DNA of 64,000 bases. It comes from an uncultured Clostridia bacterium. GTDB taxonomy: Bacteria; Bacillota; Clostridia; TANB77; UBA1234. Shown here one piece after another: positions 58,449 to 61,122 of the stretch. The translations under genes were made by a program, and so were the position numbers. Every line of letters starts with the position of its first letter. Within the stretch, counting starts at the first letter, position 1. The DNA lies in contig CAKPAA010000007.1 of NCBI GenBank assembly GCA_934132775.1, positions 21,599 to 85,598 on the forward strand, read 5' to 3'. Under the pieces are notes generated by a model that was not told where the DNA came from, searched no databases, and was given only the letters and a program-made list of their open reading frames with translations.

Positions 58449-58875
58449 ATACCTTTTGCAATATTTGCGTTTGTATTATGTATAAACATTTAAACATAAA
58501 AAAACAGCCCACAATTGTGAACTGAAAAGCAAGCTTTTTTTGACCATCCCTACTCAAACACCTTACTCGTGATACGCTGTGCAACATCGATGGATTAAAA
58601 TACTCCCAAGAATCGTAGAAGCTACTTACTCTATCTGCTAACTGTTCAAAGTCGTTAACTTGAATATCCGCCATTTCAAGTAGCACTTCTTTTAATAACC
58701 ATTCTTTTTCACTGCCTAATAAATAAGATGGAATTACGCCTGTTTCATATACTCTAAATGCTTCTTCTCTTATAGAATCATATAGAGCATCTTTTTCAGC
58801 TTCCATCTCTGCAACTTCTCTTCTAGCATCTTCCATAGTAAGTCTTTTTCTGCTACTTTCCTTCATAACGGCCAC
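58432..58875 (-). CDS. Hypothetical protein (147-aa ORF; the 3' end probably over-extended through the rpmG promoter)
   Basis: Strong RBS AAGGAG 7 nt before the ATG. No family recognised. Confidence 0.45.
   Translation of the reverse strand: MAVMKESSRKRLTMEDARREVAEMEAEKDALYDSIREEAFRVYETGVIPSYLLGSEKEWLLKEVLLEMADIQVNDFEQLADRVSSFYDSWEYFNPSMLHSVSRVRCLSRDGQKKLAFQFTIVGCFFMFKCLYIIQTQILQKVLTKKD
58454..58478. repeat. Direct repeat A (25 bp, TTTTGCAATATTTGCGTTTGTATTA)
   Basis: Identical 25-mer recurs at 61098..61122. Confidence 0.85.
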
Positions 58876-59109
58876 TCCTTCATTAAATAGATTAGGACTA
58901 TCATTACCGCAGCATTATGTAAATAATATACCATAAGCACTTGTAAATGTCAATTTGTGGCAGTTTTGCAGCATTACGGTTCACATAATGTTGACTTTTC
59001 CTCTAAAATATGATAAAATATATATAGTCACTGATGTTGTGACATTTTTCTGACACGCTGTGTTGGGAAAAAACAAAATCGGTGTTACACACCAAGAAAG
59101 GAGTTCACT

Positions 59110-59604
59110 ATGCGCAGCATTCTGAACAAAGTCACCCATTTCTATCGTAACCTCTCCAACGCTTCCAAAATCCGGTCTGCTTACAAAAAGAAGCACACCG
59201 TACGGAAACGACTGGAGAACATCAACATCGGCATCATTGTCTGCCTGTACGTATTTGTCCTCGCTTTGATAGCGATGCTGGTATGTCCTGAAGCGTTCAA
59301 TGGAGCCGAAAAGCTCGGTTGCATGACAATTGCTTGTCTTGCCATCTGGCTGCATGGTTATCGCCGTGCTATCGCCTTTGGACAGACAAACCGTCAAGCC
59401 TATATTGCGAATACTCGCACGGCTTTCAGGCGGATTTGCCGTGGACTGGGTCTACTCTTGCTCGTGCTGGCGGTCATAATCACCGTTCTGATGGTTGTGG
59501 CTCAAAAGTACACCGATGTGTTTCCCCCTCTCAAGGGGATTGCCGATTGCATTATCGCTCGACTGAACGAGATGCTCAACAATCTCTTGGCTAAAATGAG
59601 CTAA
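59110..59604 (+). CDS. Hypothetical membrane protein encoded by a roughly 50% GC gene inside the islet
   Basis: Own promoter (TTGACT...TGATAAAAT), RBS AAAGGAG and terminator. Two hydrophobic helices. Codon usage (CGC, CTG, ACC, GGC) is unlike the host. Confidence 0.6.
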   Translation: MRSILNKVTHFYRNLSNASKIRSAYKKKHTVRKRLENINIGIIVCLYVFVLALIAMLVCPEAFNGAEKLGCMTIACLAIWLHGYRRAIAFGQTNRQAYIANTRTAFRRICRGLGLLLLVLAVIITVLMVVAQKYTDVFPPLKGIADCIIARLNEMLNNLLAKMS

Positions 59605-59614
59605 GAGAAACCGC

Positions 59615-59647
59615 AAAGGCTGCACCAAAAGTGCAGCCTTTGTTTCG
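59615..59647 (+). terminator. Rho-independent terminator of the GC-rich gene
   Basis: Perfect 11-bp stem aaaggctgcac/gtgcagccttt followed by GTTTCG. Confidence 0.7.
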
Positions 59648-59659
59648 TATTTATTATAA

Positions 59660-60999
59660 TTATTCATAATCAGATATATTTGCTTCATTACTATGCTCGT
59701 TTCTCTTTTCTCTTCTCGTTCGTTCACTCATATCAATACGATTAGTACTAGTATTATCTTGAAGAAATCCTTCGCCATTTTCATAAAAGTTTCTAATATC
59801 AGAAATTACAACTCCTGCAAAAGGATTCATCCTAGAATCAAAAATTCCTTCGTGTCCGATACCTCTGTATATTTTTGCTTTAATATTGTAATCATTTTCT
59901 TTATAATATCTCAATGAATTTATAAACCTTGAATTTAAATCTTCTTCATATATTTCTCTCTGTCTTTCACATATTTCAGCTAGTGTTGTATCTCCTTTAT
60001 ATGACATATCATGCATTGGTGCTGGTATTTGTGTTTTATCTATTCTTCTGCCATCTTTATCTCTTCTTATTGCATTTCCATTAGTGTCCCAATTACCTGC
60101 CTCATGAGCTTCTCCTTGGCCAACATAATAGGAAAAGTCTATTTTTTATATTCGCTTTCATCAAATTCTTTTCCAAATAGTTCTTTATAGTCTTTTATTC
60201 CCAAAGGATAACCTAATTCTTCATTTGGTATAGGAATTGAGCCAGCCGCACCACCAATACAACATCTATGTACTATTTCTGGATGAATCAAAGCAAATCT
60301 TTGCTCAAATACTCCAGACGCCGAATAGCCATTCAAAAATACTTTATCTTTTACTTTTGTACTAACTGTTTCTTCAATAAACTTTTTTGCATCTTGAATA
60401 CAATCCAATACTTGTAAGTCAATTCTTTGACCACTACCATTTTCATTTGTAAAACATTCTTTAGCAAGTTGTTGAACATCACATTCAGGTGTAGATTGCG
60501 GAATCAGTGGAATTACAACAGGTGCTTTATCAGATATTATAAACAATCTACGAGCCATGTTTTCAATTTCTTCTTGCGTAATATTTTTATTTCCACTTAA
60601 ATTTATTGTTTCAACTATCATTTCTGTATCAGACTTAATTTTATCCGTATATAAAATGGCATACGGAAGACTTGTTTTATCATTTACAATGGTCATAGTA
60701 TATTTTGTGCCATTAATTTCCTTTTCAATCGTTTGATTTTTTCCTGTATTGCTTTCAGCAGCTCCTTTTTCATCTATTTGATGTACATTTTCAAGTTCCA
60801 TAAAATAATCATTTAGGCTTTCTGTTTTTTCAGGCAATCTAAATCCAAATTCTTTCATTGCCTTAACAACACTTTCATCTCTTTTTTGAACAAAGTCAGC
60901 AAAATTAGATATATCAAGCACTTCTGCTCTTTCTATTTCTTTGGGGAAAACATATCTTACGCCTTTCTGATTTAATTTTATAAATTCATCCTGCCACAT
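59660..60999 (-). pseudogene. Alpha/beta-hydrolase-like gene interrupted by a frameshift at a T6/A6 homopolymer
   Basis: ORFs 60139..60999 (GYSASG nucleophile-elbow-like, ..FALIHPEIV) and 59660..60016 are contiguous if one A is added to the A6 run (T6 at 60142..60147), reading ..ESEYKKIDFSYYVGQGEAH... Confidence 0.45.
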
Positions 61000-61097
61000 T
61001 GCAAATATTTCGGTTTATTTGTCGATATTTAAACCTTAACATTTTCGGTACTCTCTTTCAATATTTATTTTTGTGACATATCTATTTTAAACCTATA

Positions 61098-61122
61098 TTT
61101 TGCAATATTTGCGTTTGTATTA
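61098..61122. repeat. Direct repeat B (25 bp, identical to repeat A)
   Basis: TTTTGCAATATTTGCGTTTGTATTA. Confidence 0.85.

Follow-up and report, generated by a model that had tools for sequence, protein, structure and literature searches.

An IS481-like insertion sequence as the probable source of 25-bp direct repeats around an islet upstream of rpmG in an uncultured Clostridia bacterium

Our study concerns a short islet in the genome of an uncultured Clostridia bacterium, lying in a stretch of 64,000 nucleotides (contig CAKPAA010000007.1, positions 21,599 to 85,598; hereafter the window) between rpmG and a GT4-family glycosyltransferase gene, and bounded by two perfect copies of a 25-mer. 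The minus-strand genes are arranged in the order rplL, rplJ, rplA, rplK, nusG, secE, rpmG, islet, GT4 gene and DUF4330, with further glycosyltransferase genes beyond. From the analysis of this locus, its relatives and a wider clade of mobile elements, we conclude that the repeats are very probably the target-site duplication (TSD) of an IS481-like insertion sequence (IS) that inserted upstream of the rpmG promoter, and that the window keeps a 91-bp left end of this element together with about 2.5 kb of foreign DNA. The features on which the argument turns are the following, in window coordinates.

58454..58478: putative target-site duplication, copy A, promoter side; a single copy stands in the empty site of relatives L005 and L006
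61098..61122: putative target-site duplication, copy B, distal; same basis as copy A
58450..58453, minus strand: gap of 4 nt (GGTA) between the duplication and the -35 element; of the insertions of the IS clade that could be scored, 22 of 22 have the same spacing
58421..58449, minus strand: rpmG promoter as read from the sequence, with -35 TTGACA at 58444-58449, a 17-nt spacer and -10 TAGAAT at 58421-58426
58197..58346, minus strand: rpmG (ribosomal protein L33, 49 aa), first gene of rpmG-secE-nusG-rplK-rplA; from the list of open reading frames (ORFs)
61007..61097, minus strand: IS left end, comprising the terminal inverted repeat TATAGGTTTAAAATAGATATGTCAC... and 5' untranslated region, and stopping just before the ribosome-binding site of the transposase
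61127..62212, minus strand: GT4-family glycosyltransferase gene (361 aa), flanking gene; Pfam Glyco_transf_4, E = 1e-30

The sequence TTTTGCAATATTTGCGTTTGTATTA occurs exactly at 58454-58478 and 61098-61122 on the plus strand; the repeat is 25 bp long and no longer, the flanking bases of the two copies differing on each side. No third copy was found in the 64-kb window even with up to three mismatches, and none was expected from 100 shuffles, so that the pair reported in an initial annotation of this DNA is confirmed. Its placement of copy A next to the rpmG -35 and of copy B after the GT4 stop codon also holds, each with a 4-nt gap (copy B starts 4 nt past the stop codon), as does its account of three ORFs between them: a hypothetical gene, a GC-rich membrane-protein gene and a frameshifted hydrolase-like gene. 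Two independent public assemblies, L108 and L109 (labels of this form designate the sequences compared), show 100% identity with the window in the intervals 57291-61076 and 58292-61076; because this identity runs across the islet, its structure is not an assembly artefact.

As relatives we took public contigs whose L33 protein or GT4 protein is exactly that of the window. In L005 and L006 the GT4 gene runs straight into rpmG, and the intergenic region reads ...CAATAA-AAGG-TAATACAAACGCAAATATTGCAAAA-GGTATTGACA..., so that the GT4 stop codon and the rpmG -35 have a single 25-mer between them. This site aligns collinearly, base for base, with the sequences outside the two window copies, and the window therefore contains a 2,619-bp insertion plus a 25-bp target duplication; an empty site with a single 25-mer had been predicted by the initial annotation. 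The same source held that the islet interrupts the universally conserved neighbourhood of the rpmG-secE-nusG operon, and here it has to be corrected: the islet sits 4 nt upstream of the -35, with the promoter and the 25 bp upstream of it intact, and the adjacency of GT4 and rpmG is limited to this clade, L004 having other genes. An identical L33 protein is encoded in 1446 collection blocks, with SecE and then NusG following every time, and in relatives L001-L010 a TTGACA and an A/T-rich -10 are kept at the equivalent position of the rpmG promoter. L005 and L006 share the glycosyltransferase genes with the window; their identity to it is 98.1% and 96.5% on the GT4 side and only 92% on the ribosomal-protein side. 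They also carry different genes beyond rplL when set against window positions 53000-64000, and a recombination breakpoint seems, on this sequence comparison, to lie at or near their GT4-rpmG intergenic region. The islet is present in all contigs with 98-99% identity on both sides (L008 and L011-L017), and it thus appears to be fixed in this species.

The initial annotation overlooked that the 91 bp beside copy B are the left end of an insertion sequence whose transposase gene persists, in decayed form, in sister strains. This segment is 98-99% identical to the left ends of full copies in L018, L015 and L013 and is matched in more than 50 IS copies elsewhere; within the window there is a single left-end match, at 61073-61094. 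Full copies measure 1,127-1,148 bp and contain one ORF of 318 aa, which is intact in L018 (IS at 2896-4022, transposase gene at 3001-3957), the only intact close relative, a 96.8%-identical copy from a Hadza gut Clostridia genome. The element of the sister strains is 1,128 bp long, starts with 91 bp that are 98% identical to those following the first 25-mer, and terminates in ...TTTTGTGACATATGATTGATTAACCTACA, the inverted repeat of its start. Across copies the left end reads T[A/G][T/C]AGGTTTAAAATAGATATGTCAC and the right end ...GTGACATATGATTGACTAACCTACA, complementary at 21 of 28 positions, with termini TGT/TAT...ACA. The transposase gene is broken differently from strain to strain, by a nonsense codon in L008 and L013 and by frameshifts in L011 and L015. 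Once reconstructed, its product matches the Pfam domains rve and rve_3, and the best NCBIfam model is IS481 (NF033577, 182.8 bits, E = 1e-53), followed by IS3 (46.5 bits) and ISNCY (39.6 bits). Neither at 58454-61122 nor in the islets of the sister strains did we find an ORF or domain of a tyrosine or serine recombinase, the only such domain being the rve of the latter, and the islet of the window contains no transposase; the claim that it is an integrated, decayed element that has lost its own enzyme is supported. The right end of the IS, searched for in the window with up to three mismatches, was not found. The islet tail, ...GTTTATACA, agrees with the right inverted repeat at 10 of 28 positions, a score reached by 86-95% of shuffles, and shares with it only the terminal TACA. 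No microhomology was found at the crossover between IS nucleotide 91 and the cargo, and we regard the join as illegitimate on that account.

The termini of the IS have a further property. The right inverted repeat (L018:3993-4022, L024:3991-4020) contains a -35-like TTGA(C/T)T 8 nt from its tip, and the left repeat (L018:2896-2935, L024:2887-2926) a TAAAAT at nucleotides 9-14, such that ends abutted 0-2 nt apart would form a promoter TTGACT-16/18-TAAAAT, like the circle junction promoters of IS3 and IS30. By analogy, this hints that the element may use a copy-out, paste-in route via a circle.

The sister strains preserve several forms of the islet, which we describe in the GT4-to-rpmG orientation, the reverse complement of the window. 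In L011 and L015 the order is 25-mer, 91-bp left end, cargo, full IS, 25-mer and rpmG promoter, and the outer 25-mers are perfect. In L012 and L016, as in the window, the cargo directly abuts the 25-mer and there is no IS. In L017 the islet stands between two 25-mers, and beyond them comes a further IS; the left end of this IS joins a 25-mer at the identical junction GCAAAA/TATAGG. L008 and L013 have the IS left end at the point that lies exactly 4 nt upstream of the TTGACA-17-TATATT promoter belonging to the orphan gene of the cargo (window 58925-58953), and they lack this gene together with the DNA as far as the rpmG-side IS; the simplest reading is that a second insertion occurred at this internal promoter and that the two direct IS copies then recombined. 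Deletions, some in frame and some larger, are found in other strains, such as L014, which has lost part of the rpmG-side repeat. Islet copies differ from one another by 1.3-2.2%, the rpmG-side flanks by 0.6-1.4% and the GT4-side flanks by 0.8-2.5%, and the islet is thus no better conserved than its surroundings. The contigs of L108 and L109 both end at window position 61076, inside the IS left end, which suggests that other copies of the IS exist in that genome.

We propose that the original insertion carried a normal right end, and that its likeliest original form was that of L011 and L015, with a solo left end, cargo and a full IS inside the same pair of 25-mers. The lineage of the window would then have lost the IS through a deletion: a single event between TAC microhomologies is enough to turn the L015 form, ...GTTTATAC-TT-[TACAGG...CCTACA]-25-mer, into that of the window, ...GTTTATAC-A-25-mer, and one deletion between ATAC repeats yields the L012 form. 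The composite may have transposed in one piece, its outer left end being used together with the right end of the complete IS; alternatively, it may have been built in place, by insertion of the IS at rpmG, recombination with an IS-bearing mobile element and later deletions. With neither a right inverted repeat nor a transposase the islet of the window is immobile, and since its hydrolase gene is frameshifted too we view it as an old, fixed and decaying remnant.

The chief competitor to this account holds that the islet itself, from the 91-bp left end through the cargo to the terminal TACA, was transposed by an enzyme acting in trans on a cryptic surrogate right end, in the manner of ISEcp1, and that a full IS inserted again later. 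It explains directly why the cargo abuts the 25-mer without an IS in the window, L012 and L016, and the arrangement in L017 is what re-insertion into a regenerated target would predict; the tail ends in the terminal bases of the IS, and tandem IS copies that share one 25-mer do exist, in L095. The main objection is that beyond these four bases the tail resembles the right inverted repeat no better than shuffled sequence does. Moreover, the L015 and L011 forms cannot be derived by one simple deletion from a precursor with 25-mer, islet, 25-mer and IS, given their junction ...TATAC-TT-TACAGG. The junction between left end and cargo was found at no other locus either: all contigs with cargo and junction sit at the GT4-rpmG site, and an exact search of the JGI metagenome collection, which may not contain this organism, returned 0 matches. 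We consider one-ended transposition of this kind unlikely.

That the duplication arises from the IS is argued by the behaviour of the element elsewhere. The reconstructed transposase was compared with one genome per species (GTDB representatives), which returned 80 loci, nearly all in metagenome-assembled genomes of gut and rumen Clostridia; several copies were present in the complete chromosomes OV788638.1 (7 copies) and OZ006973.1 (5) and in an isolate of Herbinix hemicellulosilytica (4). The IS ends were located by motif, and both were found in 54 copies. Exact direct repeats abut the ends in 37 of these 54, with lengths of 25 bp (n=20), 26 bp (n=14), 27 bp (n=2) and 24 bp (n=1), and each of the 37 repeats has a different sequence. 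This pattern persists from 97% down to about 48% transposase identity and includes the four copies of Herbinix hemicellulosilytica. A constant length combined with a variable sequence points to staggered cleavage of the target and not to the core of an attachment (att) site. The other copies are for the most part rearranged or situated at contig ends. For some copies no TSD was found within 3 kb, among them L018 (2871-2895, 4023-4047), L033, L034, L037 and L057, where a promoter stands at the canonical distance on the right with no matching 25-mer on the left; such complete copies may be products of recombination between two ISs or parts of larger composites. In other loci the copies are stacked: L095:1-1290 contains two IS copies separated by exactly one 25-mer, L051:50-3850 several right ends and one pair of right and left ends 4 bp apart, and L061 two left ends, at 2697 and 2895, 198 bp apart.

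The right flanks of these insertions have a common organization. Promoters were called under stringent rules (a -35 with TTG and at least 4 of its 6 bases matching, a -10 with at least 5 of 6 matching, and 16-18 nt separating the two), and a promoter whose -35 starts 28-31 nt past the IS right end was found in 26 of 49 unique right flanks, where about 0.12 cases are expected by chance (background 6.3e-4 per position). The mirror test on left flanks gave a match in 3 of 51. The consensus of 52 sites consists of an A/T-rich TSD without specific sequence, TTGAcA, 17 nt and TAtaAT, and the -10 consensus emerges although the register was set without it. Twenty-two insertions combine an exact TSD with a promoter that can be recognised; in every one of them the TSD stops exactly 4 nt short of the -35, irrespective of its own length of 24, 25 or 26 bp. 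The cut on the promoter side is thus anchored to the -35, with the other cut floating by about 1 nt. The geometry of the window, 25-mer, GGTA and TTGACA, is that of the clade. The first genes downstream of the sampled targets are mostly housekeeping genes, namely infC (three genomes), efp (two genomes) and, once each, rnpA, rny, plsX, rsmE and dnaE.

A link to promoters could in principle also arise by selection, if the IS inserted at random and copies survived only in harmless intergenic DNA upstream of promoters. Purifying selection does purge insertions inside genes, and these AT-rich hosts have many promoter-like hexamers. Survival of this kind cannot, however, produce a fixed register of 4 nt in 22 of 22 cases, nor is it compatible with the orientation bias of 26 to 3 or with orthologous promoters having been struck independently in different genomes, three times for infC and twice for efp, and we hold it to be very improbable. 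Still less credible is the possibility, left open by the initial annotation alongside a target-site duplication, that the repeats are the attL and attR cores of a tyrosine or serine integrase encoded elsewhere, which mobilised an integrase-less element in trans. An exact 25-bp duplication is within the size range of att cores and the islet has no recombinase; yet the left copy borders directly on the inverted repeat of an IS, the ends of the element contain no part of the 25-mer, and a shared core cannot yield the 24-26-bp repeats of unrelated sequence that the clade has at about 37 other sites. It is the target-site half of that alternative which stands. That the 25-mer serves the host as a regulatory sequence, either an UP element or an operator, upstream of two promoters, with native DNA between, can be practically dismissed: copy A does lie at the position of an UP element and copy B upstream of the hydrolase ORF, but the 64-kb window has two copies only and not the common repeat that the initial annotation had named as the finding that would speak against its own proposal, relatives with one copy lack the intervening DNA, and the more distant L003 and L010 have diverged at the position of the 25-mer.

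Our structural comparisons show how elements of this IS481-like clade insert. The target is cut in a staggered fashion, at points 24-26 bp apart, with the promoter-side cut placed exactly 4 nt upstream of the -35 of a sigma-70-type promoter, and the right end of the IS always faces that promoter. As the duplicated 25 bp rebuild the region upstream of the -35, the promoter stays intact and the target becomes available again; this regeneration predicts repeated use of a site and tandem arrays, of which L017 and L095 would be cases. In a more general form, the model that we propose states that the clade reads bacterial promoters, cutting 4 nt upstream of the -35 and again 24-26 bp (about 2.4 helical turns) further upstream, and that housekeeping promoters serve it as reusable landing pads; we give this general form an even chance of being correct. 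Recognition might be achieved by the transposase alone, its own helix-turn-helix being a candidate reader of the -35, or by tethering to promoter-bound RNA polymerase through sigma-A region 4 or the alpha C-terminal domains. The strong -10 signal and the bias to highly expressed genes make us lean towards recognition of real, occupied promoters, although sequence patterns of this sort are no proof. At strong promoters, such as those of rpmG, infC, efp, rnpA, plsX and rny, copies of the IS would stack in tandem, recombine and trap foreign DNA, and the islet of the window would be one such trapped cargo.

Several points weigh against this interpretation of the islet and of the clade. The islet of the window has no right inverted repeat, and that its 25-mer once abutted a true IS end is deduced from the sister strains. 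The contigs with the empty site come from a sister or mosaic lineage, and none is seen within the species. The order of events, with the composite first and the loss of the IS later, is a proposed one. As to the family, the transposase scores 182.8 bits against NF033577, below the cut-off of 224, and the TSDs listed in ISfinder for IS481 proper are 2-15 bp long, mostly 6 (PMC10045372). The promoters were called by consensus, and the behaviour of the element is read from sequences.

The DNA carried between the repeats can be divided into two modules, with the following features.

58479..58957, minus strand: orphan-gene module, with its own promoter, ribosome-binding site, ORF and terminator-like hairpin
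58980..61006, minus strand: captured module of hydrolase and membrane genes; 91% nucleotide identity to L098-L102 (hydrolase part) and to L107 (both genes)
59110..59604, plus strand: small membrane-protein gene (164 aa), 47-52% guanine plus cytosine (GC); from the ORF list and GC profile
59660..60999, minus strand: alpha/beta-hydrolase-like pseudogene, 446 aa if intact, a 5'-truncated fusion with a frameshift near 60148

The orphan gene has its -35 at 58948-58953 and its -10 at 58925-58930, a ribosome-binding site and an ATG at 58866; the ORF as read spans 58432-58875 on the minus strand and extends through the repeat to 58432, and a terminator-like hairpin with a run of seven T lies at 58498-58522. 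Homologues of its protein were searched for and none was found outside its own cluster. The three islet ORFs gave no significant family in Pfam and NCBIfam. The hydrolase-like gene is broken into ORFs of 286 aa and 118 aa by a 1-nt deletion in an A-run near 60148, and the 446-aa ORF is intact in L012; it has many homologues of about 360 aa, one of which, the 89%-identical P0002, is named 'alpha/beta hydrolase' by NCBI. The description of the cargo as compositionally foreign is true of the membrane gene, at 47-52% GC against about 30% around it, and not of the other two genes. The membrane protein is rare, with 9 protein clusters known.

The origin of this cargo can be traced in part. A stretch of 1,360 bp is 91% identical to islands of rumen and gut Clostridia (L098-L102), and the match begins at the exact base where the 91-bp IS stub stops. 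In these islands the matching stretch corresponds to the 3' end of a 307-aa gene followed by a 337-aa hydrolase gene; as the match covers two separate genes, the 446-aa ORF of the islet is a truncated fusion. In L107 the identity of 91% extends over the hydrolase and the GC-rich membrane gene, the hydrolase there being the C-terminus of a 699-aa protein, and the adjacency of the two genes in L107 shows that they were already neighbours elsewhere. The boundary between this module and the orphan-gene module was considered as an IS scar and dropped, the homology to L107 stopping about 22 nt before the canonical cut site. On these sequence comparisons the cargo resembles leftover DNA of another mobile element more than an adaptive cassette.

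The donor-like islands L098-L102 (about 160-13000) contain genes for HTH_36, NikA/MobC-like, transglutaminase-core, two ThsB-TIR, DUF6076 and OLD-like nuclease proteins, and judged by this gene content they look like mobilisable islands with defence genes from rumen Clostridia. The GC content of the membrane gene is about 50% in the islet and also in L107:347-859 (48-51%), two unrelated settings that themselves have about 30%; a 55%-identical homologue in L103 has only about 35-42%. In L103-L106 (about 250-6800), contigs of Hadza and other gut origin, the 55%-identical homologue stands in a cluster of unannotated genes beside rpsF-ssb-rpsR, about 4.4 kb from an rve_3 fragment; this cluster may be another IS-associated accretion beside a ribosomal-protein operon.

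Two RNA features of the neighbouring operons were noted in passing. The rpmG leader (58347-58420, minus strand) contains a short hairpin followed by a run of nine T, GCAAACCGCAGAAGGTTCTTTTTTTTT, and the hairpin and T-run are retained in the otherwise differing relatives L001-L010 (AACCACGTAAAGGTTCTTTTTTTTT). By its sequence it looks like a conserved attenuator of rpmG-secE-nusG. A search of 52000-64000 with Rfam gave no match for this leader; the only match was the ribosomal protein L10 leader (RF00557) at 55920-56051 on the minus strand, with 50.4 bits, a value above the gathering score, and upstream of rplJ as expected.

Taken together, these data give an explanation for the odd islet in front of an essential operon, namely that it is what remains of an IS, harmless and in decay, and not a functional island; they also point to a precise target rule for one IS lineage, with a 4-nt register, a fixed orientation and a duplication of 24-26 bp. 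If true, this rule would amount to a natural 'safe-harbour' strategy in which the promoters keep working, and would provide a mechanism by which foreign DNA accretes repeatedly beside highly expressed genes; IS sites could then also be used as a free signal for mapping promoters in uncultured gut Clostridia.

Among known systems the IS481 family (ISfinder; NF033577) is the closest in enzyme and ends, with a single rve-type DDE transposase of about 320 aa, an element of about 1.1 kb and imperfect TGT...ACA repeats. The clade differs from it in its score (182.8 against 224), in that the nearest annotated plasmid transposases of the IS481 family are at most 30% identical, in a TSD of 24-27 bp in 37 of 37 measurable copies, and in its fixed register to promoters. 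Long TSDs are shared with the IS1202 family (ISNCY), which has duplications of 16-28 or 24-29 bp and TGT/ACA ends, and whose group is placed within the IS481 family in a published transposase tree (PMC10132070, PMC10045372); its TSDs fall into classes of 5-6, 15-17 and 24-29 bp (PMC10045372; PMC10132070). IS1202 elements are, however, about 1.5 kb long with transposases of 441-457 aa (TnpAjo2-related), against 1.13 kb and 318 aa here, and the ISNCY model NF033594, which may not represent IS1202, gives the clade transposase 39.6 bits against a cut-off of 250. The authors report no identifiable target for the long-TSD members of IS1202, and the short-TSD ISAjo2 group targets dif/pdif sites, not promoters (PMC10132070). 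The IS481EU or Banshee elements of Trichomonas likewise have an IS481-like transposase and TSDs that fall into discrete classes, about 4, 15 and 25 bp in length (PMC10045372); they differ in being eukaryotic, in the rarity of the 25-bp class and in having no reported association with promoters (PMC10045372). A 25-bp TSD therefore has precedent in the wider IS481/IS1202 superfamily, and not among the ISfinder members of the IS481 family as quoted in PMC10045372; the present clade adds a prokaryotic case to the puzzle of the classes of about 4, 15 and 25 bp in this superfamily. In the open-access literature, to which our search extended (ISfinder entries and subscription journals being outside its scope), we found no account of where an IS inserts relative to the -35 and none of a 25-bp TSD in IS481 proper, and the chances that the -35-anchored rule is both real and undescribed seem to us about even.

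The capture of passengers between IS ends is ordinary, as are an enzyme and ends of the IS481 type. Composite and one-ended capture units (IS-flanked transposons, ISEcp1-type units and transporter ISs) likewise have passengers between IS ends and one TSD around the unit, as in L011 and L015; here the left IS is a 91-bp stub with an illegitimate internal join, and the window has no right IS. A non-autonomous IS derivative, such as a miniature inverted-repeat transposable element or a transporter IS, is matched in that the TSD length and target type fit the parent family, and differs in that the window retains a left inverted repeat but no right one.

Long duplications of a defined target are found in a different transposase family as well. 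IS1630 of Mycoplasma fermentans, a member of the IS30 family, makes TSDs of about 19-26 bp by duplicating terminator-like inverted repeats; its target is thus a terminator-like hairpin, as opposed to the region upstream of the -35 for the present clade. The closest parallel to the proposed rule lies among eukaryotic elements: Ty3, Ty1 and Tf1 integrate at a fixed distance from the transcription-initiation machinery and spare coding sequence, their retroviral-type integrases being tethered by Pol III or Pol II factors. The tethering to RNA polymerase that we suggest for a bacterial IS is by comparison hypothetical, but if the rule holds experimentally this IS481-like clade would be a bacterial counterpart to the promoter-tethered integration of eukaryotes.

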